Shown here one piece after another: positions 254-28,378 of a stretch of DNA of 32,000 nucleotides. The DNA comes from Candidatus Omnitrophota bacterium. GTDB taxonomy: Bacteria; Omnitrophota; Gorgyraeia; 2-01-FULL-45-10. Both the position numbers and the translations under genes were made by a program. Positions within the stretch are counted from its first letter, which is position 1; each line of letters starts with the position of its first letter. A model generated the notes under the pieces. The model was not told where the DNA came from. It searched no databases and saw only the letters and a list, made by a program, of their open reading frames with translations. The stretch covers positions 117,689-149,688 of the forward strand of contig JAMWCX010000001.1 in NCBI GenBank assembly GCA_023818895.1, in the 5' to 3' direction.

Positions 254-3200
254 CTACTTTTTTAACTTATGGTACTCTTGCAGACTCTTTACCGATGTCT
301 TCGGTTTCTTGATAAGGTTTTCTATGCCGTTTACAGAGGCCTGAGCGCCGGACAGAGTGGTGATAAGGGGGACGTTGTAGAGTATGGCGTGAGAGCGTAT
401 CTTAATCTCGTCCTCCTTTGTCGTTTTCCCAGCCGGTGTGTTTATTATAAGGTTTACCTTGTTGTCCTTGATCAGGTCTAGTATATTGGGTCTACCCTCG
501 TGTAGTTTTGGCAGGACCTGTACGTCTATATCGTTGGATTTAAGCGCGTCTGCTGTGCCGGAAGTGGCCATTATTTTGAATCCCAGGTCGGCTAGCTTCT
601 TGGCCACGAAAACTATGTTGCGTTTGTCCTGGTTCTTGACGCTTATGAAGACGTTGCCCTTTGTCGGAAGTTTCTGCCCGGCCGCTATCTGGCTTTTAGC
701 GTATGCCATGCCGAAGGTCGAATCTATCCCCATGACCTCGCCGGTTGATTTCATCTCGGGACCGAGGATTGCGTCTACTCCCGGAAACCGAATAAACGGG
801 AATACCGATTCTTTTACGGTGACGTAAGAAGGAACCTTTTCCTTTGTGAAGCCAAGTTCTTTCAATGTCTTGCCAAGCATTATTTTAGTTGCGAGCTTGG
901 CGAGCGGCACACCTATTGTTTTGGAGACGAACGGCACTGTCCTCGAAGCCCGGGGGTTGACCTCCAGTACATAGACGACGTTGTTTTTGACGGCGTACTG
1001 GACGTTCATGAGCCCCTTTACCTTGAGTTCCATTGCCATCGCATAGGTGTTTTTCTTGATCGTTTCGATGATGTCCTTGCCCAGAGTATGCGGGGGAAGG
1101 ACCATGGCGCTATCGCCGGAGTGTATGCCAGCTTCTTCTATATGTTCAAGTATGCCTCCTATGACGCACGTTTGGCCGTCCGCGATAGCGTCGACATCCA
1201 CTTCTATGGCGTCCTCCAGGAACTTATCGATAAGTATCGGTCTTTCCGGAGACGCTTCCACCGCCTTCTCCATATAATCGGCCAGGCTCTTTTCGTCATA
1301 GACTATCTCCATCGCTCTTCCGCCTAAGACAAACGAAGGCCGTACTACTACAGGATAGCCTATCTTCTTTGCCACTTCCTTTGCCTCCTCGAACGATGTG
1401 GCAGTGCCGTTATCGGGCTGGACGAGCTTAAGCTTCTTGAGCATTTGCTGGAAGAGTTTCCTGTCCTCGGCTATATCGATCGACTCAGGGCTTGTACCGA
1501 GGATATTGAGTCCCAGCTTATGTAGGGTGCCAGATATATTAAGAGGGGTCTGGCCGCCGAATTGTACGATAGCGCCGATAGGTTTTTCGATATCGACTAT
1601 GTTCATCACATCCTCTACGGTGAGCGGCTCGAAATATAGCTTATCGGAGGTGTCGTAATCGGTAGAGACAGTCTCGGGGTTGCAGTTTACCATTATCGAT
1701 TCGTATCCTTCTTCACGGAGCGCGTAAGAGGCGTGACAGCAGCAGTAGTCAAACTCTATACCCTGCCCTATCCTGTTGGGACCTCCGCCGAGTATCATCA
1801 CTTTCTTCTTGTTCGAGGATGGTTCGCTCTCGCACTTGGTTTCGTAGGTGGAGTAATAGTAAGGCCGTTCGGCCTTGAATTCGCCGCCGCAGGTATCCAC
1901 CAACTTGTAGGCGGCCTTGATGTTCTTATTTTTTCTTTCTTCTCTCACATCATTCTCCGTTGAGGTAACAAGGAAGGCGATCTGGGCGTCCGAAAATCCA
2001 TATCTTTTTGCTTTTAAAAGCAGATTTTGCGGAATCCTGATACCGTCCTTCTGGTTTTCGTTCCTGTATTTTTTAAGCTCTTCCTCGGTTTCCACTATAT
2101 TCCGTATATTGTCGATGAACCACCTATCGATCTTGCAAAGCTCATATATCTCTTCATTGGTCATACCGAGCTTTATCGCATACCGTATGTAGAAGAGGCG
2201 CTCATCGTTTGGAACGCGTATCTTCTCCTTTATCTCGTTTATAAGGTCAGCTGATGGATTTTTTAGCATGGAGTCGGTTATCTTATCGCGGCCGTCTGAA
2301 CCGAGGCCGAAGCGCCTGGTCTCCGTTGAGCGTATACCCTTCTGAAGGGCTTCCATGAAGTTTCTGCCGATAGACATCGCCTCTCCCACCGCCTTCATAG
2401 AGGTATTAAGAACGCGTGGGGTGCCCGGAAACTTCTCAAAGGCGAAGCGGCATATCTTGAATACGCAGTAATCTACCGTTGGCTCGAAAAATGCCGTTGT
2501 CCTGCCGGTCACCTGGTTCAGTACCTCAGGCAATGTTAGGCCCACGGCAAGCTTCGTGGCAACACGGGCTATCGGGAAGCCGGTTGCCTTTGAAGCGAGG
2601 GCAGAACTTCTGGAGAGGCGTGGGTTAACCTCGATTATGACTATGTGGCCATTGGCGGGGTTCTGGGCGAACTGGATATTGGCCCCTCCTCCGGTAACGC
2701 CGATCTTGCGTATTATCTTTTTTGATAGGTTGACGAATCTTGCGTATTCTTCAGCTGTCAGCGTCTGGGAGGGGGCGACTACTATTGAGTCGCCGGTATG
2801 TATGCCCATTGGATCCACGTTTTCCATAGAGGTTATCATGATTACGTTGTCAACGCAGTCCCTCATCACCTCGAACTCTATCTCCTTCCAGCCGAGCACG
2901 GACTGCTCGACCAATATCTGGTGAACCGGGCTTATTTCGAGGCCTTTCGCCAGGAATGCCTCGAGCTCCTCCTTATTATAAGCTATGGAACCGCCGGAAC
3001 CGCCGAGAGTGTAGGCGGGTCGCAGAATCAGCGGAAAACCTATAGAAAGGCCTATCTTCATTCCTTCTTCGACCGAACGCGCTATTCCGCTCTTCGGGAC
3101 GTCTATACCTATCTCGAGCATTGCCTTCTTGAAAAGCTCCCTGTCTTCGGCACGGGAAATTGCCTGGACGTTAGCGCCAATTGATTCGACGCCGTATTTT

Positions 3201-3526
3201 TTAAGGATACCCTCTTTCATGAGGAAATACGCCAGGTTTAATCCCGTTTGACCGCCGAGAGTAGGTAGTATCGCGTCCGGTCTCTCTTTTTTTATTATCT
3301 CGGTGACAGCTTCAACGGTGAGCGGCTCTATGTAGGTTGCGTCCGCCATATTAGGATCTGTCATAATGGTTGCGGGGTTTGAGTTTACCAGTATCGTGAA
3401 GTAGCCCTCTTCCTTCAGCGCCTTGCAGGCTTGCGAGCCGGAATAATCGAATTCGCATGCCTGGCCTATTATTATCGGCCCCGATCCTATCATCAATATC
3501 CTGTGTATGTCCTTACGCTTTGGCAT
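254..3526 (-). CDS. carB: Carbamoyl-phosphate synthase large subunit, full length (1,090 aa)
   Basis: There are two homologous ATP-grasp halves: [42 protein letters not shown] and [35 protein letters not shown]. An oligomerisation region and a C-terminal MGS-like allosteric domain are also present. The ATG overlaps the upstream carA stop by 14 nt. Confidence 0.97.
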
Positions 3527-4652
3527 ATGCCACCTCGCGATATGATTTGGAATTTTTCTTGATTTTTAGAATGCCACCCCCCTTTTTAGCCATGGAGAGA
3601 AATCGCGGAAAGACCTCATTTATCTCTTCAAAGCCAGGGCTTGCGGGGTTATATTGAACCGACATGAACTTCAAAGTTTTTGATTCCATCGCTTCGATGG
3701 TATCGTCGTTAACGTTGCGCAGAGTTATCGCCACGCTCTTGTTATTTTTGAGAGAGTTTTCATCAATGACATAAGAATGATTCTGCGCCGTTATTTCGCC
3801 CTTGAAAGAAGCGGCCGGCCGCACCGGATAATTTACGCCATGGTGGCCTATCTTGAGTTTTCTGAGCTTGCAACCCATGGCCATGCCGATTACCTGATGG
3901 CCTGTCGCGATGCCTAACATCGGTATTTTGCCAAGAACCGTTTTAACGGTATCCGCTACTTTCGGAAGGCTTATGTCGTTTTCGGGACCGTTCGAGATTA
4001 TCAGACCATCAACTCGCATGCTCAGGATATCGGAGGCGCTTGTATCATAAGGAAGCAATGTTACATTACAATTCAAAATTTTGAGTTGATGTATAAAACT
4101 ATTGAGCATTCCCAGATCCAGGACCGCTATGGTTGGCCCAGATGATCCTGTCTTAAGAGGCGTCGGATGCTTTACGGATATGGCTTTGATAAAGTCTTTG
4201 CCGTTTGTCTTCTGTTGGCTCAATTTCTTCAGCAAGGATTCTTTCTTGAGGTCCGTTGTGGATATGGCGCCGAACATCTCGCCTTTATCGCGTATAGTAA
4301 TAGCGAGCGTCCTGGTGTCGACCTCGCTTATAGCCGTAACTTTTTCTTCTTTGATAAAATCGCATAACGAGCCCTCTGCTTGCCAGTTTGAATATATTCT
4401 GGACTCTTCTTTTATGACAAGGCCCGCTATCCAACATCTCCTCGATTCATTGAATTTTTTGGCAATACCATAATTGCCTATCAACGGATAAGTAAGGACT
4501 AGGATCTTACCCGCATTGCTTGGGTCAGTCATAATCTCCTGGTATCTCACCACAGCGGTATTAAGCACAACCTCGCCGAACCTCTCTCCTGGCTCGCCGA
4601 TAGATATACCTTCGAACGAGCTACCGTCTTCAAGCACTATCATTGATTTCAT
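3513..4652 (-). CDS. carA: Carbamoyl-phosphate synthase small-subunit homolog with a degenerate glutaminase active site
   Basis: The N-domain is conserved ([38 protein letters not shown]). The class-I GATase motifs read GIATGHQ instead of GICLGHQ, and VQYNPASPG instead of FQ.HPEA.PGP. I place the start at ATG 4652 ([10 protein letters not shown]), preceded by GGGAGA at 4657-4662. The ORF-track start at 4667 is a TTG five codons upstream. Confidence 0.85.
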
Positions 4653-4684
4653 ATTTTCTCCCGTCAATCTTATTTATAAAACAA

Positions 4685-4717
4685 AAGGCCAGCAGGGACG
4701 ACAATCCCTCTGGCCTT
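4685..4717 (-). terminator. Intrinsic-terminator-like hairpin plus U-tract: likely terminator of the giant ORF and possible attenuator in the carAB leader
   Basis: The minus-strand RNA is AAGGCCAG-AGGGA/UUGUCG/UCCCU-G-CUGGCCUU, a 13-bp stem with one bulged base and a hexaloop. It is followed by UUGUUUUAUAAAUA. The hairpin lies 22 nt upstream of the carA Shine-Dalgarno sequence. Confidence 0.6.
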
Positions 4718-4854
4718 AAAAAAGGAGCCATTGTGGGTATTACTTGCTATGTACCAGCTCCCTCCTGCCGACGACATCTATATTTATATCCGACATAATA
4801 TTAATTTTGTAACCTCCACATTCCTCTCGGATGTGCGATTTCTTCATTGCGCAA

Positions 4855-4883
4855 ATTCTAACACAGCTGGCTGCCGGTGTCAA
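4855..4883 (-). promoter_or_regulatory. Sigma70-type promoter candidate for carAB
   Basis: On the minus strand: TTGACA (4883-4878), a 17-nt spacer, then TAGAAT (4860-4855), with TGT immediately upstream of the -10 (extended -10). It sits 50 nt downstream of the giant ORF stop. Confidence 0.5.
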
Positions 4884-4935: not shown

Positions 4936-7900
4936 TTATGCGAATTCCTGTACCTTGTAGAGCCGCCTGAGGTTCTCGTAGACGGGGATCCTCTCTGCCT
5001 TGGGCAGGAAGATGAAGACGTTGCGGCAGTCCTTTAGGGCCTCGGCCCTCACAGCTGGGTTGTCGAGAGCGTCTTCTGCAGCCAAAACGTCTTTTAGGCC
5101 TAGCTTCAATGCCATCGCGAGCATTTCCGTGAGGTACATATAGCAGCTCTCGTCCAGCCCGCTTGCGTCGACGCCGGCGAGAAATGCCTTTTCGTCATTG
5201 CGCAAGTATTCAAATTCCCGCGAGATGACGGTGTCGCGAGATGCGAGAACGACTACCCGCGCCGCAGGGGTAATCTCTCTTGCCTTTGCTATTTCTGATA
5301 GTAGATCTTTGTCTTCGCGGTCAATGAATGTTATGCCGCGGTCATTACAGAAATTGCGGATCATGATTATGTGCTGATTAAGGTCGGCATATTGTGGTCC
5401 GTTTCCACGCATATAGCCTTTTATCCAGCTTGTGCCGAGAGCTAGTATTACAGGCTCTTTCTGGTTCGCGGCGCGGATGAGCTTGACGATATCGGAGAAC
5501 TTTACCGCTTCTATACGCGCAAGTTCCGCTCTCGGCTGTTCGTCTGGGCTGTAGCCTGACGTATCACTGGGTTGTAAAAAAGATCCTGTCTTGTTCTCAT
5601 CTTCTGTCAGGATAGTTTTCGAATCACTAATTTTTGCGTTTACTTCAGAGGCCGCTTGCAGGTGCCAGAGCTTGGTTTTTCTTCCGTCGATTTCGGCATT
5701 AACCTTAACCCATATACCCCGGAACGGGTAAAGATAATTCTGCTTAAGATTGCTGTTGGGAATTGGTGTTCGGAGCTTACCCGTATATCTATCTTCCAAC
5801 TCCTCAACGGTAGATGCGTAAAAATATTCGAAACCCGCTTTTTGGGCCAATCTGACAATATGCATTATAGCCCCTCTATTCCACTCGTAAAATCTTTGGC
5901 GTATTTCAAGAGGTTGGATGTTGCGGAATCCCAGGCTTGGCTGGACGTCATATATGAGTAGGGCGGGTTTTTTGTTGTGTTCAGTTATCCGCAGGCGTAT
6001 TACGCCGAAAAGGCCGCTGGAAGGCACATAGTCGTCAGATGCCATCATGTCGAGCGTGGCAAGTTCGGGATAGGCCTTTTTGGTATCTTCCGTAGGTTCG
6101 ATCGCGAATTCCTGCGGGATTTCATCGTATTCGATATACGCGCCAACCTTTTGCCCTTTGACAGTCCATGTGAAGTAAGGATCCTTTTCCAGTAGTTCCA
6201 GTAGTCTGGCGAACTCCGCTGATTTCCGCAGAGAATTACCCGTCTTAGGCAATAGTAAATGTTGTGTGCCGGCATCGTAGTGGGGCGGCGCGAAAGAGCG
6301 AAATAAATTCTCAAGAGACTCATCATCGATGGATGTCAGTTTCTTGTTGACAAGGCCGAAGAGCACCTGGGGCATTGTAACAATCTTTGAAAAATGCCTC
6401 TCCAAGGCATATAGCGCTCCGCCGAGACATCCTGAGTCCGGTTCGGGAGATTTTAATATTTCACCGTTCGCAAGATAGCGCACCTCTTCTCCGCCGAAAG
6501 GCGCCAGCGACGTAACGCCGAGTTTTTTCATAGTGGCTATGACAGGTTGCCAGCGCCTCTGGTCATATATACTGTCTGGCAGCGCTGCCTCCGTTGCCGG
6601 AATACCCCACCGCGGAACACTTGGTATATCGACGATTATAGCGCTCGTCGATATATTCTTTAAAACATTGTAATTGCCGCCCAGTATGAATACCACGCCT
6701 TTTTCGGCCGATATGGTTTTTCTTAAGTTTGACAGGTATATTTCCGCCTCTTTCTGATTTGCCATAACGATATCGTTTTTTTCACTGGCAGTAAAAATCT
6801 GCCCCGGATGCACCAAAAATGAAACCCGTCCACCTTGCTGCTTAATGGCCTTGCGTATAGCATCGGCGTGTTTGTCGATGTCCGCCCATTGGATAATGCG
6901 AGCCTCGGCCATCTGATACTTACTTACGATCTGATCGGCGCGCGCAAGATAGCCGGTTGACCGTAGGTAATCCAGGCCGCGACTATGGTCCGACTCGGGT
7001 ATCCTGTCGGTCCATTCATAGTCTTCCTCTTCACCATCATAGGGAACAAGATCGATCTCTCCCCATTTGACTGTGTGGACCAGATAATGGAATGGGATAT
7101 TTTCGTTTTTTCTGTACATACCAACAAGATATGCCTCATATCCAAGCTTATTTAATATATATGTGAGCATGGCTGAGTTGGCTAGACATGATTTCAAATC
7201 CATCGACTTGACTGCGTTTTTGATCTCGTTTATGATGTCATTGCTGTTGTCTGTGTTAAGTCCATCTCTGGAACCTGAAGACGTATTTGATATTTCAGAT
7301 ACATATGTGGTCAGAGATAGGGTGGATATATTATCATCCCTATCCCTTGCTCCATCTTTTATAGCGCTGCTTATCTTCCCGCGGATTCTCACCTCATTGG
7401 AATCTTTGAGGATGGGCTCTAATTCGGAGATATCCTTTATGGCTATCCAATTTTGGTGTTTATCATCGCCGGCTTTTTCATAGCTTATTTCTACGGATTC
7501 GAATATGCCGGCCCTGGCGCATCTAAGGAAAAATGCGGCATGTGTCTCATCAGGTATGCCATAATATTCGATAAATCTATTTGGGCCGGCCTGCGATGCA
7601 AGCCATCTTACTACCTCGACACCCAATCCCCGCCGCGTATCTTTCTTGTCAAATATGCGCAGGTTCTTAAATAGCGTTGTCTCGCCATTCACGTAAAACG
7701 CGTATAATGTGCCAACAAGCTTTTCGTTCTCTTCGAGAAAATACCACGATCTGTCAAAAGCTCGCAGCCTCAACCTCTTCTCCTCGGATATCTCTACATC
7801 TTCTTCTGGAAGCGTTGTCAGGGGAGCGCGATCAGTCTCTTCTGTCCATATGCGGAAACATCTTTTCAATGCCTTTATTATTTCTCTAGCCCCTTCCCTC

Positions 7901-10900
7901 TCTCCTAGGTACTGTGTTAGGCGTGGAATGCCCGGTGTATTCATGGAGAGCCATTCGAGCTGCATTACTATTTCAGCTATAATTTGGTTATTCATTTGGT
8001 AAAGCGGGTCATCTTCGTGCTGGAGAGAGTCGAATATCCGGTTGGCTATCACTTTGATAAGGCCGGGGTTTTGTTCACACGCCCTAACAAGGCCGTTTGT
8101 TATAAGCGCGTGATTGACGCAGCAAGGCATATAATGAGTATCATGAGCTAGGTTGACGATGACTTCAAGCGCGGTGCATATAGCTTCTTTTTGGCTTTCA
8201 GTGTTTAGTGAGGCGAGATACGCAGCCAATTCGCTATAACTGCGCTCGGCCATTTGTTTAATGTCGTTACGGGAAAGCGCGTCCCGCGTGCCTTCGGTAT
8301 GGTCCATGCCTCCCAAAAGCGGGTGCTCATCGTCGCGCTTAAGTTTCTCTTCGTAAGAAAGCCAGGTAGTGGCAGAGGTTATTTCCTTGATTTTTTGCCC
8401 TTCCTGCCAGTGTTCGATTATCCCGTCCCGTCGCATAGTGGCGAATATGGGATTGGGTGCGCCGTGGATGTTCGCCGTCCTCCCTTTTTCGTACAATATT
8501 ACGACATCCGCCTCTTTGCCGGAGGTTTGCTCTCTTACGCCGATCCTTCCCTCATCAAGATATGACACCAGATCTTGCGGTAGATCACAGGCCGTTATCT
8601 TGCCGTTCGAAACCTTTATCCTCCCAATATGTTTGCCATCCTGTGTAAATGGATCAAAATCGGCCTTCATCACAGCATATTCGACAGAGTCCGAATTTTC
8701 CACCTCCGGCTTCTTATCGCCGGTTTGTTTTATGAGCTTTCTTGCGATATGGACAAGTGCCGGATTAACGATGCCTGATATTCCGGAGTGGGACGCACCG
8801 TTCCTCCAGGCCGATTTGATGAGCCAGTTCAATACCGTCTCGCCTATTCCCTTGCCCCTGTCATTTACCCGGATCGTTGTTATGACATTCGTGCCCTTGT
8901 AATAATTGACCAGCCCAGCCTTCCTGCCGTCGGCTACAATCTCATATAACTTGATAGGGCCTCCTCGATGAGATGGTATTTTGATTTTTATGTCCATAGC
9001 GCCTGTCTTTATATTCCGCAGTTTGATGACATTCCACAGGATACCGTAATGATACTCTTCCCATATTGTTCCAAAAGCATCTGTTACGGTTCTTATTCGG
9101 CCATTTTTATCCTTTTCAATATACTCAAATGGCGCATGACCGTTATTTTGCCTCGCCACCCATTCAGGTGCTGCCATGTCATCTGGTATGCCTGGACCAT
9201 CTCCTTCGCCTGACGGCGGATAATCATATGCCTGTATTTTTTTATCGGCTTTTAAGCCATCAAAATAAGCCAGTCTAGAGGCGATGGCTTTCTCTATTTT
9301 CTCTTTGTCCTCGGTCAGCTTGTATTCGAGGATCATTTGGAGTTCCTTATCCATATCCATGTCACGAGGGGCTGTCTTTCTTATCTCATCGCGAAGATCC
9401 GCAAGCGTCTGGGCATCTTCGGGCCTTGCCAGGCCAATGTATTCTATAAGTAAATAGGTGTCTTTTTCGTGTATCGTCTCATCGAAGATCCTGACCGGTG
9501 TAAGATAGTTTTCTGTTAATACCGCAATTCGGCTTTTATAGGCATCAGAAGGAACTGTCGATATTTTCGACAGGCGTATCCATATTTTAGCAAGGGCTTC
9601 CATCGTGGCGAGCACATCCTCGCTTTTTTCTAATTTACCGATGTTAGATGTTATGACCTGCTCCATCTTGACAAGTTGTATCTCGGACGCCTTATCAATG
9701 TTTCGTATAAAGTTTGTAATCGAAAGCATGATATGTTGCTGTATTTCGGGTGAGAAGTTTTTGGCGCCATGGCCATCGTCAGCGGGCACGTCCCCTACAG
9801 AGAGGCTGTTGTGGTCCATGCCGCCAAGATACCAGTGCTCCTCATCCCGCTTTAGCATCTCATCACGGGTCAGATTTAAAAGACCGGTCTCTTCGGTCTT
9901 CCTGGCCAATATTATGTCAAGCTGCTGAGTCAGGTCAAACCTGCCTATATACTCTTTTGTCCTGTGTTCTATGCCGTAAAAGGCTCGAGTTCTCCTGATA
10001 GATGAGGTCACAAAGTCCGATTTTTCATCCGCTCTCATCTTCTTCCAGTTTTCCGTGGCCTCTTTGCTGTAATAGTCGGGATTAAAGGCTATATACAAAA
10101 TCCCGCCTCTTTTCAGTGTCTTGGCCGCTGCTGAAATGAGCGCCTCCGGGTCTTTAACATAAGCCATGCCGGAGGTGATTATCACGGCGTCAAAATGGTT
10201 TTCCCACTCGGCGGGAAACTCCGGATTTGCGTTTAGGTCCTGCACGATGCGTTGGGTAAGTTTCGCGTTGACATTAAGCTCGTCCCTGTTGAGCCCTATT
10301 CCGATGATCTCCGACGCGTTTACGGATTGCGGCACATATGTAAAAGCGCCGCTCATGAGATCAAGGACCCTTGCCCCTCGTGGCAGGTAGTCTTTGAGAT
10401 AGTCTTCTATGTATGTGGTGGCCGCATCTTCCAGATAGGGTATCGCGCTTTGCGTGTCAATTAAACTGAAAGATGATTTAACATAATGGAGGATAAGGCT
10501 GGTCCTCGTGCCTATTGCCGGCACATTTTCCATATGGAAATTTTCGGCCCCCAGACAGTGTTCTATAGTCTTGAGGCCGGCGCCCCCTCCCCATAGTCCC
10601 GCGTGAAATGCCTTCGTTCTAGATTCTGTGTTATCGTTTCTTGAGGCGGTATCGTAGATGTCTACGGTGGTATTTTTTGCCAAAGAATCTATTTTTATGT
10701 CGAGGAAGATCGGCTTGCTGAAATCGGCTCTGTTGCCGTGTGAAAACGCGTTTTTGATGGCCTCCGCGATTGGTGTCATGCTTTTGCCATCGGTGAACGC
10801 GTCATCGAGTTTTCCGGAGAGCTTCATGATGGCATCATAAAGATCATCATAAGCGGATTCTTTTTCGGCGAGATAAGCCAGATTCAAAGCCACTGCGTTA

Positions 10901-13900
10901 CCGTTTTTAATGGCCTCGATAATTTTATCCACATTTCCTATGTTTATGTCAATGACGTTCTTGCCCGTAACACTTTTTACGGAAGCGGCGGTAAAACTGC
11001 CAGATATAGATGATGACGGCTCGGCATCTCTTATTCCTGACCAGCCAGTGGGCTTTGCTTCCTGGGGCCTTTCGAGATCGCGGGCTATGGCGGGATCGGT
11101 GGTCTGTTGGGCCGCTGAATCCTGCTTTGTTGCTGAAGGCCTGAGCTCAAGGTTGCCGTTTTTCCTTACGATGAGGAGCTTGTCCCGACCGGCGGCGCCT
11201 ATAGCCGCAAGCATTCTTGTCGGTATCATCAAGCGATTGCCCTTCTGGAGGTTTGCTATAAATTCGCTGTTCGATCCTATGACCGTAAGCATTTCGTTAT
11301 TTTTGGTATCTGTAATAGACTTGCCGAGCAATGGTTTTATTTTCTGTAAGAATTGACCGGCGGGATAGACAATGATGCATCTATCGTAACTTTTGCAGAA
11401 AAGATAAAAAGGTGCCTTGAATTGTGAGGCGAGGCGGGCGGGTATGGCAACTCTGTTATTACTGTCGATAGTTACTTCTGCCAGAATTTCATCCTGGTTA
11501 TCGTTAAGTTGCGCCTTATCGTTCTCAATGGAGTTTTTCTTGTCTTTATGTGATAAGTCGGTGTTTTGGTTTTTGGAAGAAGCATTATTTATTATCACCC
11601 CGAGTATCGAAACTAAAACCAGCCATTTTGTCGATACTGGCATCGTTCTTGATGCTGCGCTGGTGTGTCGGTAGGGTTTCTCTGGTTGTCTGAGCTCAGG
11701 CGGATCTTCTGCTTGGACAGGATAGAGTAGTTGGCCGTTATGGATCATGAGTCTGCTGCCATGGGAATTGTTTGCTTTTATGAGCATAACGTTTTCTATC
11801 ATTCCAAGGTTTTGCAGAGCGCGGTAAATATTTTTTACGGTTCTTAGCCAATGGGGACTGAAGATGCCGCTGTTATCCTCTAAGGCATAGCTCCCTTCAA
11901 GAATATATATCCTTAATCCCATTTTCTCGGTAAAGTTTGCAGCGATAGAATCTTGTATTTCCTGTATAGTGCAAGCTGGCGTGAAATGGGCAAGATAGTG
12001 TTTTCCGTTTTGAGGATCGTCTATTGCTAAACCAGCGCATGTGCCGACGTTGTCGATGTATAAAGGGATATCGCGGGAGTTGATTTTGTAGCTCATCATC
12101 GGAACATATACCGCATTCGTGGTGACGTGGCATATCTCCATTGCTTCTGCTCTTCTCGAGAGGTCTTCCGATAAATTCCTGACCTCTATCGGCGTTATGG
12201 CGTAGTAGCGACAGTCCTTCATGGTATCGAGCAGGCCGAATGGTAGTAGTATCGCTATGGCGAGTATGATGCCGCTCGCAAAGGCGGCTGGCAACTTCAG
12301 CCATTTCAGATGTTGTGCGCGCTTATCACGCTCTCCCCTCTTTTTCTCATACGGCGTGGTTTCATTTTCTCCCTGCACAAAGAAATGGATGAGTTCGTTT
12401 TTTGTTCTGTGATGCCTAAATCCCGATATCGGCTCCTTGAATAGCCTGAAGCCCTCATGCCCCTGAAGTATGAATATGCCGCCGGTTTTTATCTCTTTGA
12501 GTTTATCCACGAGTGCATATTCGACATCGTCCGGAGCACCGCCCATAAAGTAGTAGACAGCATCATACCTACCCAGATCTTCTTTGAGAAAATCCCCCTG
12601 CTTTATAGTGACGCTGCCCGGTTTGATGAGCCCTTCTTTTATAAGTTCATCAAGCATCTCTTTGGCATATGAGACCTTAGACGGGTCCCACTCGACCATC
12701 GTGACCCTGAACCCGAAGACCGACGCCATGAAAAACCCGAAGCTTCCTAGGCCGCCCCCGAGATCTACTATATGTGCGCCTTCTTTGAGGCCCCATTCCC
12801 GCACCGTCGGTCCAACTATGTATTCACTCGAATCCATGAATATGCCGAACGCGTTTTTCGGATCCCTGGAGACATACGGATGTTTCTGTCTGTAGTGTTC
12901 CTTGAAATCTATGAATGCCCTCATCCTCAAATATTGGGCGCGGCTCAGGTTCTCCTTTATGCTGTTTATATACTTTTCTCTGAATAGTTCTTCTCTTCTT
13001 ATTCGGAGCTTTTCGTAGGGTATCGTGCCATCGAGTTCGGCTGAGATATTAAGGGCGTGATGAGCCCATGACGTGAGGGCAAAGAAAGCCACACTTTGAG
13101 GCATGCTCATGAATATCGGTGTGGCCATAACAACAGCATTTAGTAAAGCGATAACCGTTATTTTATACCAGGGCGGCGCCTGCGGCATATGCTTGGCCCT
13201 GAAATAATGCGAGGCAACGAAAAGCGACCATGTTATGGCCGATGCCCAAAGACTTCCGGTGATTGGTGTCAAAATAATGGCTAATTCCCAGAATAACGCC
13301 TGCTCTATGAAAACCTGGGACCAGCTCTTTATCTTTTGTGGCATTGGGAAGGATTCGTCTATCTTGTCGATGAGCCAGGCCAATAGCGGTATCTGTCCCC
13401 ATGCCTCTCCCTCACTAAAATAGTCGGTTTTTGCCTCATCTACATGTGATATAATATTGTCAATATCTTCGTGCAATCCTTTCAGATATGAGCATTTACC
13501 GAAATGCTTAACGAACCATTCTATTGTTTGAACAGGTTCGTAAATGGCAAGATGATTATCGAGAGTGATACCGTCTCGAAGGATTTTCCTGATAGCATCT
13601 GATGCTGCCTTAGACTGAGCCAGTTCTTCTAAAAGTTTTGAACGTGTCTCGCCCTTAAAGAGCTCTAAGATAACAGTTTCTGCCTGCCGGAATGTTGTTG
13701 GATTGAATCGTTGGACGAATGCTGTGAGCATTTGTTCCAGCCGAGCGCGGTTGAACTCATTTTTAGGTGGTGCCTTTTCATAGGCGTATATCTCTGATAA
13801 GAGAAACTCAAAATTGGCATTCATAACATCAGTTTGAAACCTGCTTGCATCATCACGTAGTGCCTGGAGCATTCTTAGTAGTTCTACTATTATATTGTTT

Positions 13901-15471
13901 AGGGCAATATAACGCGAAGCGACAGCTGTCCCGGGAATACAATATTTTTTGAAATCCGATGCCAGTAGGGAATTTAGCCTTCTTAGAGTTGATTCCCGCG
14001 ATAAGAGTACTTTCCAGAAGCTTTCCAAGTCCACCGCCCATCCGATTTTTTTGACCTCGTTAAGATATTTTCTTATATCGGCGTATGTATCCTCAAATAT
14101 GCGTTCAAGGATTTTAATGGTAGGAATGGCGTGATGCGTCTCAGGGTCATTTTCATCATTGAGGTAATCATCGACGTCATCATTGGCGTCATCATCGGGT
14201 GGCTGGGTAATATGTGGCGTCCCCGGCCCCCAGAGGAGGTTCTCGCGATCGTCTTTTTCGTATTCCTTCTCTTTTACATTTGCTGATGCGTTGATGTCGG
14301 ACCTTTGAGCAGGAGGCTTTGTCTTAGAATGACCCAAAAACTTGTCATCGACTTTAGATATGTTTTTGTCATCCTTATCGGCTAAGTTGTGGGTTTTACT
14401 CATCGCGGTGTCTTCGTTTGTTTGTATTAAGGGCATGACCTTTACATAGACATTTGTGCCGTCACCGAGCGGTATCGTCATATCGGCATCTGTGTTTTTG
14501 TCCTCAAGATAATATTTGTAATAATAAGCCTTTACTCCGTTTCTATATAGTGGCAGATAATACGCCTTCTCTTCTTTGTTATAAAATAGTTCGTTTATCG
14601 CCAACCCTGCAAGGAGAGGATCGTTCTTGTTAGCGCGTTTTATATCTACTAAGGATATGTGGCGTTTTATTTCCGGGATAAGAGTATATTGAGATATACT
14701 ATATTGTAGATATTTTCCTATCAGGATACTTATATCCCGAAAGACAGCTTTCTCGCGGAATTCTTTATCGTCAGCGTACGCTATGGCAATAAATTCATTC
14801 TCGGCGAATATCTCAGAGGAGTCGTTTTTTTTAGGGATGCGAAGTTGCGTCTTTGTACCGTCAGCAAAAGGTCGCCAGCTTATCGAGCCGCCTAATCTGC
14901 GCATTGTCAGAGATGCGTCAATAACTCCGGTACCATTGCCTCCAAAATGTTTCTTGAGGTGCTGGGACGACCTTTCCCTTTTTCTGTAAGCTGGAACACC
15001 TTCCTTTAGAAGCTCTATTGGCTTGCCATTATCGATTACATTTATTATCAGTTCGTCAGCGTCATAGTACGCCTCAATTGTGACTACACCTACAAATGAT
15101 ACAATCCCCTTATTGCGCATCTCTTCGAATTTATCAATTATAGAATCATACGAGTTTTTCATTATTTCCATGAGCACATCTTCCATTAGGGGGTTTGTGG
15201 TAAGGCGCTGATATAGCGGGTTTTTCTCTACTTTTGTCTTAAAGTCCGTTTTTGAACGCAAAAATGACGATTCGATTTCCGGGTTGAAATTTATCCGAAT
15301 CTCCGTCCTGGCACCATTTGCAACAGATAGTATAGGGCTAAATCTGCTGGGAGGGGCAAGGTGGTATGTTGCCTCATTGGTCGCAAAACTTAACTCGTTT
15401 AATATCAGGGCAAGAATCAGGAATACAGATATTATTTTTAAAGGCAGGCTTAGTTTGTAATAACTTAACAT
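4936..15471 (-). CDS. Giant multidomain protein (3,511 aa), function unknown. Domain order: signal/anchor, GHKL ATPase, CPBP-like 4-TM block, SAM-MTase, CheD-like hydrolase, MraZ-like domain, GHKL ATPase, SAM-MTase, 2x (helical + GNAT-like), transglutaminase-like core, unassigned C-terminal third
   Basis: A single uninterrupted frame. Motifs seen, by aa range:
- aa 1-30: KLSLPLKIISVFLILALILNELSFA.
- aa 95-214: EIMKNSYDS / VIDNGKP / GGNGTGV...LGGSISWRPFADGTKTQLRIP.
- aa 715-812: EQALFW / FVASH / HHALN in hydrophobic helices.
- aa 880-1005: HIVDLGGGLG / YDAVYYF / TGGIFILQG.
- aa 1113-1251: NVGTCAGLAIDDPQNGKHYLAHFTP.
- aa 1331-1446: IDSNNRVAIPARL and LQKGNRLMIPTRML.
- aa 1560-1663: AEAIKNAFSHG / GGGAGLKTIE / GTRTSLIL.
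- aa 1683-1800: RVLDLMSG / FDAVIITSGMAYVKDP / KRGGILYIAF.
- aa 2140-2250: RGKGIGETVLNWL.
- aa 2575-2665: RRGLGVEVVRWL.
- aa 2750-2812: SCLANSAML...PFHYLVH...EIDLVP. Confidence 0.9.
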   Translation of the reverse strand: MLSYYKLSLPLKIISVFLILALILNELSFATNEATYHLAPPSRFSPILSVANGARTEIRINFNPEIESSFLRSKTDFKTKVEKNPLYQRLTTNPLMEDVLMEIMKNSYDSIIDKFEEMRNKGIVSFVGVVTIEAYYDADELIINVIDNGKPIELLKEGVPAYRKRERSSQHLKKHFGGNGTGVIDASLTMRRLGGSISWRPFADGTKTQLRIPKKNDSSEIFAENEFIAIAYADDKEFREKAVFRDISILIGKYLQYSISQYTLIPEIKRHISLVDIKRANKNDPLLAGLAINELFYNKEEKAYYLPLYRNGVKAYYYKYYLEDKNTDADMTIPLGDGTNVYVKVMPLIQTNEDTAMSKTHNLADKDDKNISKVDDKFLGHSKTKPPAQRSDINASANVKEKEYEKDDRENLLWGPGTPHITQPPDDDANDDVDDYLNDENDPETHHAIPTIKILERIFEDTYADIRKYLNEVKKIGWAVDLESFWKVLLSRESTLRRLNSLLASDFKKYCIPGTAVASRYIALNNIIVELLRMLQALRDDASRFQTDVMNANFEFLLSEIYAYEKAPPKNEFNRARLEQMLTAFVQRFNPTTFRQAETVILELFKGETRSKLLEELAQSKAASDAIRKILRDGITLDNHLAIYEPVQTIEWFVKHFGKCSYLKGLHEDIDNIISHVDEAKTDYFSEGEAWGQIPLLAWLIDKIDESFPMPQKIKSWSQVFIEQALFWELAIILTPITGSLWASAITWSLFVASHYFRAKHMPQAPPWYKITVIALLNAVVMATPIFMSMPQSVAFFALTSWAHHALNISAELDGTIPYEKLRIRREELFREKYINSIKENLSRAQYLRMRAFIDFKEHYRQKHPYVSRDPKNAFGIFMDSSEYIVGPTVREWGLKEGAHIVDLGGGLGSFGFFMASVFGFRVTMVEWDPSKVSYAKEMLDELIKEGLIKPGSVTIKQGDFLKEDLGRYDAVYYFMGGAPDDVEYALVDKLKEIKTGGIFILQGHEGFRLFKEPISGFRHHRTKNELIHFFVQGENETTPYEKKRGERDKRAQHLKWLKLPAAFASGIILAIAILLPFGLLDTMKDCRYYAITPIEVRNLSEDLSRRAEAMEICHVTTNAVYVPMMSYKINSRDIPLYIDNVGTCAGLAIDDPQNGKHYLAHFTPACTIQEIQDSIAANFTEKMGLRIYILEGSYALEDNSGIFSPHWLRTVKNIYRALQNLGMIENVMLIKANNSHGSRLMIHNGQLLYPVQAEDPPELRQPEKPYRHTSAASRTMPVSTKWLVLVSILGVIINNASSKNQNTDLSHKDKKNSIENDKAQLNDNQDEILAEVTIDSNNRVAIPARLASQFKAPFYLFCKSYDRCIIVYPAGQFLQKIKPLLGKSITDTKNNEMLTVIGSNSEFIANLQKGNRLMIPTRMLAAIGAAGRDKLLIVRKNGNLELRPSATKQDSAAQQTTDPAIARDLERPQEAKPTGWSGIRDAEPSSSISGSFTAASVKSVTGKNVIDINIGNVDKIIEAIKNGNAVALNLAYLAEKESAYDDLYDAIMKLSGKLDDAFTDGKSMTPIAEAIKNAFSHGNRADFSKPIFLDIKIDSLAKNTTVDIYDTASRNDNTESRTKAFHAGLWGGGAGLKTIEHCLGAENFHMENVPAIGTRTSLILHYVKSSFSLIDTQSAIPYLEDAATTYIEDYLKDYLPRGARVLDLMSGAFTYVPQSVNASEIIGIGLNRDELNVNAKLTQRIVQDLNANPEFPAEWENHFDAVIITSGMAYVKDPEALISAAAKTLKRGGILYIAFNPDYYSKEATENWKKMRADEKSDFVTSSIRRTRAFYGIEHRTKEYIGRFDLTQQLDIILARKTEETGLLNLTRDEMLKRDEEHWYLGGMDHNSLSVGDVPADDGHGAKNFSPEIQQHIMLSITNFIRNIDKASEIQLVKMEQVITSNIGKLEKSEDVLATMEALAKIWIRLSKISTVPSDAYKSRIAVLTENYLTPVRIFDETIHEKDTYLLIEYIGLARPEDAQTLADLRDEIRKTAPRDMDMDKELQMILEYKLTEDKEKIEKAIASRLAYFDGLKADKKIQAYDYPPSGEGDGPGIPDDMAAPEWVARQNNGHAPFEYIEKDKNGRIRTVTDAFGTIWEEYHYGILWNVIKLRNIKTGAMDIKIKIPSHRGGPIKLYEIVADGRKAGLVNYYKGTNVITTIRVNDRGKGIGETVLNWLIKSAWRNGASHSGISGIVNPALVHIARKLIKQTGDKKPEVENSDSVEYAVMKADFDPFTQDGKHIGRIKVSNGKITACDLPQDLVSYLDEGRIGVREQTSGKEADVVILYEKGRTANIHGAPNPIFATMRRDGIIEHWQEGQKIKEITSATTWLSYEEKLKRDDEHPLLGGMDHTEGTRDALSRNDIKQMAERSYSELAAYLASLNTESQKEAICTALEVIVNLAHDTHYMPCCVNHALITNGLVRACEQNPGLIKVIANRIFDSLQHEDDPLYQMNNQIIAEIVMQLEWLSMNTPGIPRLTQYLGEREGAREIIKALKRCFRIWTEETDRAPLTTLPEEDVEISEEKRLRLRAFDRSWYFLEENEKLVGTLYAFYVNGETTLFKNLRIFDKKDTRRGLGVEVVRWLASQAGPNRFIEYYGIPDETHAAFFLRCARAGIFESVEISYEKAGDDKHQNWIAIKDISELEPILKDSNEVRIRGKISSAIKDGARDRDDNISTLSLTTYVSEISNTSSGSRDGLNTDNSNDIINEIKNAVKSMDLKSCLANSAMLTYILNKLGYEAYLVGMYRKNENIPFHYLVHTVKWGEIDLVPYDGEEEDYEWTDRIPESDHSRGLDYLRSTGYLARADQIVSKYQMAEARIIQWADIDKHADAIRKAIKQQGGRVSFLVHPGQIFTASEKNDIVMANQKEAEIYLSNLRKTISAEKGVVFILGGNYNVLKNISTSAIIVDIPSVPRWGIPATEAALPDSIYDQRRWQPVIATMKKLGVTSLAPFGGEEVRYLANGEILKSPEPDSGCLGGALYALERHFSKIVTMPQVLFGLVNKKLTSIDDESLENLFRSFAPPHYDAGTQHLLLPKTGNSLRKSAEFARLLELLEKDPYFTWTVKGQKVGAYIEYDEIPQEFAIEPTEDTKKAYPELATLDMMASDDYVPSSGLFGVIRLRITEHNKKPALLIYDVQPSLGFRNIQPLEIRQRFYEWNRGAIMHIVRLAQKAGFEYFYASTVEELEDRYTGKLRTPIPNSNLKQNYLYPFRGIWVKVNAEIDGRKTKLWHLQAASEVNAKISDSKTILTEDENKTGSFLQPSDTSGYSPDEQPRAELARIEAVKFSDIVKLIRAANQKEPVILALGTSWIKGYMRGNGPQYADLNQHIIMIRNFCNDRGITFIDREDKDLLSEIAKAREITPAARVVVLASRDTVISREFEYLRNDEKAFLAGVDASGLDESCYMYLTEMLAMALKLGLKDVLAAEDALDNPAVRAEALKDCRNVFIFLPKAERIPVYENLRRLYKVQEFA

Positions 15472-17256: not shown

Positions 17257-17655
17257 CTATTTTATAATATTTATCGTTTGGCCGGAGGACTCCATCTCTT
17301 TACGAAACGCCTCGTTTGCTGCCTTGAAGATCGCCGGATTTGATTGCCACCCCTTGTATTTCGGGCGAGAGTTTGCCCACTGCTCGAAAATGGCCCACCT
17401 GAATTGGGCAAGCGTAACTTCTTCGCCTGACATACCGATCTTGTTTGTATTATGGTCGGTAACGGTCTTCTTTATTTCGCCGCCCCTGTAATTGATTATG
17501 GGCGTCACCTTTCCTGTGAGAGCATTATATTTCGACGGTATCTTTATCCCGCCGATCTCGTAATTTACCGTGCGTATGAATACAAGGCGATATAAGAAAA
17601 ACGTGGCTACAAGCGCCACTGCGCTCAAGAGAGTCATCTTCAATGTCCTGTTCAT
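17257..17655 (-). CDS. Hypothetical membrane-anchored protein (132 aa)
   Basis: It has an N-terminal hydrophobic helix (MTLLSAVALVATFFLYRLVFI) followed by a soluble domain with no motif I recognise. AAAGGGGAAG precedes the ATG. It is tightly packed behind the holin-like gene. Confidence 0.6.
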   Translation of the reverse strand: MNRTLKMTLLSAVALVATFFLYRLVFIRTVNYEIGGIKIPSKYNALTGKVTPIINYRGGEIKKTVTDHNTNKIGMSGEEVTLAQFRWAIFEQWANSRPKYKGWQSNPAIFKAANEAFRKEMESSGQTINIIK

Positions 17656-17669
17656 GCTCTTCCCCTTTC

Positions 17670-18098
17670 TTAATCCACTATTTTTCCCTCTACGTCTATG
17701 ACATTTTCGTCCTTTTTATTGATATTCTTACGGCTATACGCGAAGAAAGTTATGTTAGCCTTGGGAATCATTATCAGGTTAAGGAGAAAGCTTATGAAAC
17801 TGAAAAAAAGAGCCGCGAAGAACGCGCTCCAAAAGCTTTCTATGACGAATCCCTTTACGGCCCTCGAAGCAAGATATAACATGAACGCGTTTATTAGGAG
17901 AGTAAACATACCGAGAGACATTATATTTATGGGCAGCGTTAATAGAAGCAGCGCAGGGCGCACGAAAGCATTAAGAAGACCGATTAAGACAGAAGCTACC
18001 ACTAAAGATTCCCATCCTGACGCCCTTATGCCCGGCACAATATTGACAACAAAAAAGAGTGCTATTATATTTATCGTTAATTTTATTATGAAACCCAT
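17670..18098 (-). CDS. PF04020-type (phage holin family 4 / YvlD-like) four-TM membrane protein
   Basis: IALFFVVNIVPGIRASGWESLVVASVLIGLLNAFVRPALLLLTLPINIMSLGMFTLLINAFMLYLAS closely follows the YvlD/DUF360 pattern (VPG...LN..IRP.L..LTLP...LTLG.F....NA.ML). Confidence 0.75.
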   Translation of the reverse strand: MGFIIKLTINIIALFFVVNIVPGIRASGWESLVVASVLIGLLNAFVRPALLLLTLPINIMSLGMFTLLINAFMLYLASRAVKGFVIESFWSAFFAALFFSFISFLLNLIMIPKANITFFAYSRKNINKKDENVIDVEGKIVD

Positions 18099-18099
18099 C

Positions 18100-18516
18100 T
18101 TACTCCCCTATTATTTTTATAAGTACACGTTTCGGTCTTCTACCATCAAATTCACCGTAAAAAATCTGCTCCCAGGGGCCAAAGTCTAGTTTCCCAGCGG
18201 TAATCGCAACGACTACCTCTCTACCCATGACTGTACGCTTCAAGTGGGCGTCAGCGTTATCTTCACCGGTCAAATTATGCCGATACTTGTCTTTGCTATA
18301 AGGGGCTAATCTTTCGAGCCAGGTATTAAAATCCTGACGCAGGCCATTTTCATCGTCATTTATAAAGCAGCTGGCGGTAATGTGCATTGCATTGACAAGG
18401 CAGAGGCCCTCTTTGATGGAACTCTTGCGGACAGCCTCTTCCACCTGAGGGGTGATGTTTATGAGTTCCTGTCGAGATTTTGTGTTGAATGTCAGATACT
18501 GTGTGTATGACTTCAC
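18100..18516 (-). CDS. yjbQ: YjbQ/UPF0047 family protein (secondary thiamine-phosphate synthase-like)
   Basis: At 138 aa it carries [35 protein letters not shown]...[46 protein letters not shown], the hallmark YjbQ motifs. Confidence 0.8.
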
Positions 18517-18550
18517 GGTGCGTTTTCTTCCTGATACCGAGCTATTTTCC

Positions 18551-19534
18551 TTAAGGCAGGGAGCCTTCGTTTATAGAGTCGATAAATTCTAACATCTTTT
18601 CGTAGCTTTTTACAACAGATATCTTTTCGCGAATTCGCTTCGCAAGAGGAAAGGACTTAAGATACCATATCGCCACCTTTCGCATGAGGCCCACTCTCAC
18701 CTTTTCGGAGGCGTCACAATATGTTTCTAGGTATGAGAGGTGTTTTTTGAGGACGTTTTTCTTATCCTCCAGCGTTGGTGACGCAACTTCCTTTCCGTTT
18801 GATATATACTCGGCGATCGCCCTGAATATCCACGGGTTTCCCAGACCGCCGCGCGCGACCAGTATGCCATCGCATCCGGTGGCAGCAAGCATTTTGCCAG
18901 CATGTTGCGGCGATAATATATTTCCGCTGCCGAAAACAGGTATATCGACGGAATTTTTAACGGCCTTTATTGTGTCATAATCTATATCTCCGGAATATTG
19001 CTGAAGCCTCGTCCGGCCGTGAACGAACAAGGCGGATGCGCCCGCATCCTCGATCATCCTGGCGATATCGACCATATCCTGGCATGTCTCGTTTTTATAA
19101 CCTATCCTTATCTTTACCGTAACTGGGATATCAAGTGCAGAGGAAAGTCTGTTTATTATAGCGCGCAGATTTTCGCGGTCCTGCAGAAGGTATGAGCCCG
19201 CCTTCTTGCGTATGACCTTTTTAGCCGGACAGGCTGCGTTTATATCGAGAAAGGATATCTTCAAGCGCGACAGGATGTCTTCCGCTGCCTTGAGCATGAT
19301 ATCAGGCTTCGAACCCAGAAGCTGAAGGGCAATCGGACGATCCTTATCGTGCGTTTTAAGAAGCGAGAGGGTCTTTTTTCTATGGTAAAAGACCGAATGG
19401 GAATCTACCATCTCGAAAAAAGCAAACGCCGCGTCGTGCTCCCTGGCTATAAGCCTGAAAGCCAGATCGGTGCAGCCGGACATAGGCGCAAGAAGGATGT
19501 TTGTTGGAAGAATATATTTTCCTATCGCCAGCAT
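18551..19534 (-). CDS. dusB: tRNA-dihydrouridine synthase (NifR3/DusB-like)
   Basis: At 327 aa it carries [24 protein letters not shown] and VTVKIRIG...[14 protein letters not shown]-like motifs of the Dus TIM-barrel flavoenzymes. Confidence 0.85.
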
Positions 19535-28364: not shown

Positions 28365-28378
28365 CTAACCCTCCTTTT

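Follow-up and report, generated by a model that had tools for sequence, protein, structure and literature searches.

From what source does a carbamoyl phosphate synthetase (CPS) take its nitrogen once its small subunit has lost the residues that hydrolyze glutamine? The question is raised by a 32,000-nucleotide stretch of the genome of a Candidatus Omnitrophota bacterium (GenBank assembly GCA_023818895.1, contig JAMWCX010000001.1, positions 117,689 to 149,688), referred to below as the window, which carries two sets of genes for the CPS small (CarA) and large (CarB) subunits:

3513 to 4652, minus strand: carA1, a CPS small-subunit homolog with a dead glutaminase site (379 amino acids; alternative start codon TTG at 4667)
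254 to 3526, minus strand: carB1, a full-length CPS large subunit (1090 amino acids; identified by Pfam and alignment)
24117 to 25208, minus strand: carA2, a canonical small subunit with the catalytic Cys, His, and Glu intact
22460 to 24130, minus strand: carB2N, the N-terminal half of CarB only (556 amino acids; carboxyphosphate and oligomerization domains)

An initial annotation of this DNA described CarA1 as a retained pseudo-glutaminase subunit. That CarA1 is a conserved and selected protein of this kind is strongly supported, because its state is shared by all 120 members of its family, the gene is under purifying selection, the predicted fold is intact, the gene is coupled to an intact carB, and CarB1 has coevolved with it along the ammonia tunnel. 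The overlap of 14 nucleotides by which the annotation had linked carA1 to carB1 is real (3513 to 3526) and is also present in the homologous loci L003 and L085, and carB2N overlaps carA2 by the same length.

Loss of the glutaminase site in CarA1

The changes in the former glutaminase site of CarA1, in Escherichia coli numbering, are as follows:

3906 to 3908, minus strand: Ala codon GCG where the nucleophile Cys269 would lie, in the motif GIATGHQ (phmmer and MAFFT)
3642 to 3650, minus strand: AAC-CCC-GCA, encoding Asn-Pro-Ala, with His353 replaced by Asn, Pro354 kept, Glu355 deleted, and the Ala aligned with Ala356
3975 to 3983, minus strand: loop SNGPEND in place of the canonical SNGPGDP (G243E in 120/120 and P245D in 119/120 family members)
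3624 to 3632, minus strand: FEE, encoding P360F, H361E, and D362E (family, F in 117/120 at position 360 and E in 119/120 at position 362)
3834 to 3836, minus strand: Val codon GTA at the tunnel residue Gly293 (family, V91/S17/A7)

The three codons singled out by the initial annotation, GCG at 3906 to 3908, AAC at 3648 to 3650, and GCA at 3642 to 3644, are present as it had described, and its replacements of Cys269 by Ala and of His353 by Asn are borne out. Its third substitution, Glu355 to Ala, is instead a deletion: phmmer alignments with E. coli CarA structures and three MAFFT alignments all place a one-residue gap at Glu355 (HPEASPG in E. coli versus NPASPG in CarA1), and under either alignment the position lacks an acidic residue. 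The Asn lies in QYNP, where canonical sequences read Q[FY]HP. CarA2 keeps the canonical motif GICLGHQ together with FHPEACPGP, as the annotation had stated. Among aligned canonical CarAs, Cys269 is present in 196 of 196, and His353 and Glu355 are present in all 194 that cover these positions, two sequences being truncated.

The carA1 family was defined as the best 120 database homologs, which are 59 to 99% identical and come mostly from Omnitrophota metagenome-assembled genomes (MAGs) and metagenome contigs. Neither Cys269 nor His353 is present in any of the 120, and Glu355 is deleted in every one. Because the triad is universal in canonical CarAs and absent from every member of this family, its loss in CarA1 by chance is excluded. 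Position 269 is occupied by Ser in 83, Ala in 26, Gly in 7, Val in 2, and Gln in 1 of the sequences, and position 353 by Tyr in 79, Asn in 21, Asp in 8, Cys in 5, and Ser in 4; such free variation is as expected of residues that, to judge from these alignments, have ceased to matter. Among the observations that, according to the annotation, would overturn its reading were other Cys, His, and Glu residues in the catalytic positions, and none were found in the alignments. An alternative triad nearby was likewise rejected, given the free variation at 269 and 353 and the absence, among the 120 homologs, of any alternative conserved nucleophile or any other conserved Cys in the amidotransferase domain.

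The loss extends beyond the triad. Of the residues that we take to bind glutamine or to form the oxyanion site (S47, G241, G243, L270, Q273, N311, G313, and F314), the family has Ala, Thr, or Ser at S47 and carries G243E, L270T, Q273E, and G313S; K202 is variable, and G241, N311, and H312 are retained. The loop SNGPGDP presumably serves as the oxyanion and glutamine-binding loop, and positions 360 to 362 are taken here to form the wall of the ammonia tunnel at its exit from the small subunit. Seven new residues are fixed or nearly fixed across the family (Y48N, Q51K, D69F, G243E, P245D, P360F, and D362E). The pyrG, guaA, and purQ genes of the same Omnitrophota clusters retain their Cys and HPE motifs, which indicates that glutaminase loss is specific to this CPS and that glutamine is still used by the other amidotransferases.

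Conservation, selection, and predicted fold

By its structure CarA1 belongs to the CarA family, yet it lacks the family's catalytic features: it has the N-terminal small-chain domain, the class I amidotransferase fold, and the adjacency and coupling to carB, but not the catalytic triad. The N-terminal domain is the better kept of the two, as the initial annotation had suggested, with 148.9 bits on PF00988 (full-length profile, 1 to 126) versus 109.8 bits on PF00117 for the amidotransferase domain; CarA2 scores 190.9 and 187 bits, respectively. Of 74 columns that are nearly invariant in the 196 canonical CarAs, the CarA1 family retains 49; the N-terminal domain keeps 24 of its 31, and the amidotransferase domain keeps 25 of its 42. 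CarA1 scores 356.8 bits on TIGR01368, above the cutoff of 307, and this is probably why its relatives carry the name "glutamine-hydrolyzing" at NCBI, a name that is probably wrong for them.

Between the window and L003, the proportion of synonymous differences in carA1 (pS) is 0.74, which is saturated, and that of nonsynonymous differences (pN) is 0.148; for the amidotransferase-like domain alone, pN is 0.16. Between the window and L085, nonsynonymous divergence (dN) is 0.278 for the amidotransferase-like domain of CarA1 and 0.121 for the amidotransferase domain of CarA2. The dead domain thus evolves about twice as fast as the live one, yet far from neutrally. In the same comparison, dN is 0.086 for CarB1 and 0.154 for CarB2N, so that CarB1 is the more constrained synthetase. 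The AlphaFold2 model of CarA1 has a mean predicted local distance difference test score of 91.9, and in Foldseek it reaches template modeling scores of 0.85 to 0.87 with E. coli CarA chains and 0.81 to 0.83 with the N-terminal moiety of human CPS1.

That carA1 is an assembly artifact or a decaying pseudogene has a negligible probability. A probable frameshift in the pyrG gene of the window, at about 26462 to 26467, is what could be said for it. The carA1 frame itself is intact, and the ratio of pN to pS is that of a gene under purifying selection. Over 120 independent sequences, drawn from many samples, share the same state, a 99% identical copy occurs in an NCBI MAG (protein P0002), and the fold is predicted with confidence; both assembly error and pseudogene were rejected on these grounds.

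An intact CarB1 with an altered ammonia tunnel

CarB1 aligns over its full length with E. coli CarB (1290 bits, against 838 bits with human CPS1), and every ATP-site residue checked is intact in both ATP-grasp halves: R129, R169, E215, H243, Q285, E299, N301, R303, and R306 in the N half and R715, E761, H788, Q829, E841, N843, R845, and R848 in the C half. It also carries the allosteric domain PF02142 (MGS-like) and retains E783, D791, and E892 (E. coli numbering), which we assume to be ornithine-site residues. Two codons mark the tunnel:

2831 to 2833, minus strand: Thr codon ACC at Cys232, a tunnel gate residue (Thr in 8/8 CarB1 sequences, Cys in 39/39 canonical CarBs)
2732 to 2734, minus strand: Val codon GTC at Arg265 (Val in 8/8 CarB1 sequences, Arg in 38/39 canonical CarBs)

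In a comparison of eight CarB1-family sequences with 271 columns that are nearly invariant among 39 canonical CarBs, 249 of the columns are retained in all eight. Seven are changed in at least three-quarters of the family, namely, C232T, D258 (to Ala, Gly, Lys, or Arg), R265V, V304L, D333P, P360C, and T540R. T249V is found in all eight sequences as well; column 249 is variable and lies outside the 271, and the same Val occurs in 6 of the 39 canonical bacterial CarBs. CarB2N is canonical at all eight of these positions, including C232, T249, and R265, in four genomes. The CPS ammonia tunnel is gated by C232, A251, and A314 (PMC8674909, PMC4655335). The positions altered in CarA1/CarB1 include CarA 360, CarA 361, and CarB 265. 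These are the sites of the triple mutant (alphaP360A/alphaH361A/betaR265A) with which Huang and Raushel reportedly perforated the tunnel in 2000.

The CarB signature tracks the dead CarA

Dead CarAs appear to be frequent and varied in metagenomes. At 50% identity clustering, which leaves about one representative of the Omnitrophota family, the triad is incomplete in 65 of the 150 representatives nearest to CarA1 (proteins P0121 to P0269). The nucleophile Cys is lacking in 59 of these 65, with Gly the commonest substitute and many combinations of losses. One cluster with an incomplete triad includes a Planctomycetota protein. A metagenome scan seeded with five closely related sequences of this Planctomycetota-containing lineage yielded 80 loci. 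In 41 of 41 informative loci, a dead CarA adjoins a CarB with Thr at 232 and a residue other than Arg at 265, while in 5 of 5 a live CarA adjoins a C232/R265 CarB. When all loci are pooled, the CarB signature accompanies a dead CarA in 50 of 51 and a live CarA in 0 of 44, counts that come from loci that are not phylogenetically independent.

In a neighbor-joining tree of the CarB N half from which the signature columns had been removed, the CarBs with dead partners formed a single clade (bootstrap, 96/100), and CarB2N fell among the canonical CarBs. The Glu355 deletion is also found in the Planctomycetota-like dead CarAs. The existence of one dead-partner CarB clade and of a common Glu355 deletion indicates that CPS with a dead CarA has a single ancient origin, as far as these trees and alignments can tell. 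The initial annotation had regarded triad loss as particular to a single gene copy; the loss defines instead an ancient clade that extends beyond Omnitrophota to Planctomycetota-like organisms and others. A scan of the genome collection with the single CarA1 protein recovered four close loci along with canonical CarAs and was too specific to score the co-occurrence of carA1 and carA2 per genome.

The sole exception to the signature is the cultured Firmicute Desulfonispora thiosulfatigenes DSM 11270, whose carA has C269G and whose CarB is canonical at positions 232 and 265. The gene lies in a pyr operon (locus L087, FWWT01000021.1, 4821 to 11306), and the same carA also carries G243E and Q51K. 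Since pyrB is called there as two short open reading frames (ORFs), the operon may be decaying; the glutaminase loss looks like a separate and recent one, and the value of this strain as an independent cultured example is weakened by the split pyrB, the possible decay, and the canonical CarB.

In the Planctomycetota-like branch, a GMP synthase without its glutaminase domain is encoded directly upstream of the dead carA (L088, 9011 to 9946, and about 50 of the loci L089 to L168). It consists of the ATP-pyrophosphatase part only, at about 311 amino acids, and such operons therefore encode two amidotransferases without a working glutaminase.

Two CPS modules in one neighborhood and a probable in-place deletion in sister genomes

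In loci L085 and L086, the gene order is pyrG, carA2, carB2N, small ORFs, DUF1846 gene, carA1, carB1, purF, guaA, purL, and purQ. The window has the same order, except that a large ORF is inserted before carA1; several unrelated genes, on the minus strand, separate carB2N from the DUF1846 gene. The remaining members of the neighborhood in the window are as follows:

26874 to 25266, minus strand: pyrG (CTP synthase), in two frames (ORFs of 135 and 398 amino acids) with a break near 26462 to 26467
17196 to 15664, minus strand: DUF1846 gene
4936 to 15471, minus strand: ORF of 3511 amino acids, flanked by the DUF1846 gene and the carA1 leader

The pyrG ortholog in L085 is a single protein of 538 amino acids, and the split in the window is either an assembly indel error or a genuine frameshift. 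At the site of the 3511-amino-acid ORF, two ORFs (4541 and 2017 amino acids) are found in L003 and none in L085. The two small-subunit paralogs, carA1 and carA2, occur on one contig in at least five cases (L085/L086 and at least four more, from matched homolog lists), and NCBI MAGs labeled Candidatus Omnitrophica contain the 99% identical partial CarA1 (P0002) and a 100% identical CarA2.

In three related contigs (L169, L170, and that of P0387), a stand-alone CarB C half of 521 to 529 amino acids takes the slot of carA1 and carB1, flanked by the DUF1846 gene and purF, and pyrG, carA2, and carB2N are all retained. The stand-alone C half is located as follows:

L169, 17394 to 18959: stand-alone CarB C half
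L170, about 17300 to 18890: stand-alone CarB C half

These proteins are 88 to 90% identical to the C half of CarB1 in the window, to which other family CarB1s are 79 to 87% identical. The most parsimonious interpretation is an in-place deletion, in a sister lineage, of carA1 together with the 5' half of carB1, leaving CarA2, CarB2N, and the CarB C half as a three-piece glutamine-dependent CPS that resembles the Aquifex enzyme (PMC6022934). On the same interpretation of the sequences, the sister-lineage enzyme would be chimeric, with its N half from the canonical line and its C half from the dead-type line. Neither the window nor L085 has a stand-alone C-half gene for CarB2N. An internal start in carB1 that would yield a free C half was sought at the position where the stand-alone proteins begin, and no Met is present there, the nearest being four residues further in; an internally started C half is speculation.

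The slot is preceded by a leader upstream of carA1 with the following features:

4855 to 4883, minus strand: promoter-like TTGACA-17-TAGAAT, with 11/12 matches and a TG extension, kept in L003, L169, and L170
4677 to 4716, minus strand: leader hairpin (4686 to 4716) and U tract (4677 to 4685), a terminator or attenuator about 30 nucleotides before the carA1 start

The leader of about 200 nucleotides (4653 to 4883) is homologous in L003, L169, and L170, whether carA1 or the stand-alone C half lies downstream, and the hairpin has 13 pairs, 4 of which show compensatory changes across four genomes. Rfam gave no match for the leader, which is a candidate attenuator or riboswitch on the basis of these patterns. 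Genes for GAF-ANTAR regulators are found nearby in L001 and L170.

Immediately upstream of pyrG and carA2 are ammonia-assimilation genes (window, 27027 to 30636, minus strand; L169, 1 to 9867; L170, 3457 to 7141). They encode an NADP-type glutamate dehydrogenase, glutamate-synthase small-subunit-like proteins, and PyrK-like proteins, and the whole region is a supercluster for nitrogen handling and nucleotide synthesis. L009 (Omnitrophota UBA10183; 7023 to 14854) carries a canonical carA with two full-length carB genes (1089 and 1071 amino acids) in tandem behind it.

Comparison with known CPS systems

A 2018 review describes bacterial CPS as the glutamine-dependent type II and the ammonia-only type I, with its vestigial glutaminase, as the mitochondrial urea-cycle enzyme (PMC6022934). 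Literature searches returned no description of a bacterial CarA without the triad or of CPS in Omnitrophota. CarA1/CarB1 resembles vertebrate CPS I (human CPS1; PDB 5DOU and 5DOT) in retaining an inactive glutaminase-like moiety beside intact synthetase halves. CPS1, in which the Cys has become Ser, uses ammonia only, and its ancestral tunnel is blocked by Gln at the Gly293 position, the position that is Val in CarA1 (PMC4655335). The analogy with CPS I that the initial annotation had drawn therefore holds for the logic of the nitrogen donor and falls short in extent: in CPS1 only the Cys has changed, with His and Glu kept, whereas CarA1 has lost Cys and His, has Glu deleted, and has few of the glutamine-binding residues left. 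In addition, CPS1 retains the gate Cys (C648) and Arg265, where CarB1 has Thr and Val, is a single fused polypeptide rather than the product of two overlapping genes, and requires N-acetylglutamate. T249V, V304L, and D333P are common to CarB1 and human CPS1, in which they may be general eukaryotic features; the glutamine-dependent CAD may have these residues too. This convergence was not counted as evidence for ammonia use, T249V being found in some canonical CarBs as well. Common descent with CPS I is contradicted by the placement of CarB1 in a bacterial clade of dead-partner CarBs, by its higher score with E. coli CarB than with CPS1, and by its unfused state; judged by these comparisons, CarA1/CarB1 arose independently of the vertebrate enzyme.

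Like E. coli CarAB, a CPS II, the pair consists of two subunits from adjacent genes with the same domain architecture (1290 bits for CarB and 200 bits for CarA), and both proteins exceed the NCBIfam equivalog cutoffs; unlike it, CarA1 has neither the triad nor the glutamine site, and both subunits deviate at residues of the tunnel gate and wall. The other module of the window recalls the split CPS of the Aquifex type, with carA2 and carB2N as the GLN and CPS.A parts, to which the sister genomes add a stand-alone C half (PMC6022934). It differs in that a stand-alone C-half gene is missing from the window, where carA1 and a full-length carB1 fill the slot, and in that the C half of the sister genomes descends from dead-type carB1 and not from the canonical lineage of CarB2N. 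The kinds of lesion engineered in E. coli CPS (C269S/G, H353N, the G359F tunnel block, and the perforated tunnel) occur naturally in CarA1/CarB1, but here they occur together, date far back, and come with compensating changes in CarB. The best phmmer match of CarA1 is 1A9X, which we believe to be the H353N mutant itself.

Mechanism and alternatives

The account that we favor, and regard as probable, is that CarA1/CarB1 is a bacterial CPS of ancient origin whose glutaminase is vestigial and which would use free ammonia as its substrate. The glutaminase site would have died once in the lineage, an event marked by the common Glu355 deletion, and the tunnel of the large subunit would have been remodeled at the same time through C232T at the gate, T249V, the loss of R265 and D258, and V304L. 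The enzyme would then use bicarbonate, two ATP, and free cytoplasmic ammonia to make carbamoyl phosphate, and the role of CarA1 would be limited to structural or allosteric support of CarB1, like that of the inactive glutaminase-like domain in vertebrate CPS I, with CarA2/CarB2N supplying a glutamine-dependent route in the same genome. E. coli CPS with a blocked or perforated glutamine tunnel shows normal activity with external ammonia (PMC4655335). That this is, more broadly, an unrecognized ancient class of bacterial CPS, with a tunnel rebuilt for free ammonia and replaced module by module in Omnitrophota, is about an even proposition. Several points weigh against this account. The C232T change could in principle lower activity, since gate mutations in E. 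coli impaired the use of both glutamine and ammonia in the work of De Cima et al. (PMC4655335). The sister genomes dropped carA1 and the N half of carB1, so that this front end is dispensable beside CarA2/CarB2N. The family-invariant residues N48, K51, F69, E243, D245, F360, and E362 point to a constraint beyond an obvious structural role.

The two CPS modules may instead share their work, a possibility that we consider unlikely but not slight: CarA2/CarB2N would make carbamate and pass it to the C half of CarB1, either in a hetero-oligomer or as a separate C half, and CarA1 with the N half of CarB1 would be a redundant or high-ammonium front end under replacement. This would fit the sister contigs, in which pyrG, carA2, and carB2N stand beside a C half derived from CarB1 and the homologous leader precedes either arrangement, as well as the lack of a C-half gene for CarB2N in the window and L085 and the repeated presence of both paralogs on the same contig. 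Against it, no free C half is encoded in the window, and the halves of a full-length CarB are covalently joined; in the E. coli structure they also pack together. CarA1 and the N half of CarB1 are under strong purifying selection, and L001, which carries a distant family member, has no carA2 near pyrG or carA1. Isolated half-size CPS subunits can, moreover, perform both ATP-dependent steps, so that CarA2/CarB2N may suffice alone (PMC6022934).

A new role for the dead amidotransferase domain, as an ammonium vestibule, as a ligand sensor through E243, D245, and E362, or as a dock for an ammonia-producing enzyme, would account for the seven nearly invariant new residues in 120 sequences, for the continued constraint on the domain, and for the independent recurrence of G243E and Q51K in Desulfonispora. 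This is rather improbable, since the positions of the former nucleophile and His vary freely, which speaks against catalysis at the old site, and the Planctomycetota-like branch keeps G243 and P245, so that E243 and D245 are not required for the function of the clade. The initial annotation had offered two functional options, ammonia dependence and service of CarB1 by CarA2 in trans, of which the former has the better backing in the sequences. Docking of CarA2 on CarB1, with delivery of glutamine-derived ammonia, is suggested by the presence of a canonical CarA2 about 20 kb away in the same neighborhood, and we think it very unlikely. CarA2 has its own CarB2N at every locus examined, with the two genes translationally coupled, and the interfaces differ, with F360/E362 in CarA1 and V265/A258 in CarB1 versus P360/D362 in CarA2 and R265/D258 in CarB2N, positions that we assume to line the tunnel between the subunits. 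CarA1 would in any case occupy the docking site, its Gly293 position is Val, and the gate of CarB1 is altered.

Implications

A large bacterial lineage appears to have reached, independently, a solution like that of CPS I and to have carried it further. Such enzymes are natural experiments on how external ammonia enters the carboxyphosphate site, on the purpose of a small subunit without a glutaminase, and on the rebuilding of an enzyme by module swaps. If CPS with a dead CarA is indeed an unrecognized ancient class, bacteria independently evolved an equivalent of CPS I long before there were vertebrates, a canonical glutaminase and N half were later acquired in Omnitrophota, and the dead small subunit and the old N half were then excised in sister lineages. 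Many "glutamine-hydrolyzing" entries would be wrong, and this systematic misannotation affects the metabolic reconstructions of Omnitrophota, Planctomycetota-like, and other uncultured groups. The choice of nitrogen donor in CPS would then be evolutionarily labile and ecologically tuned.

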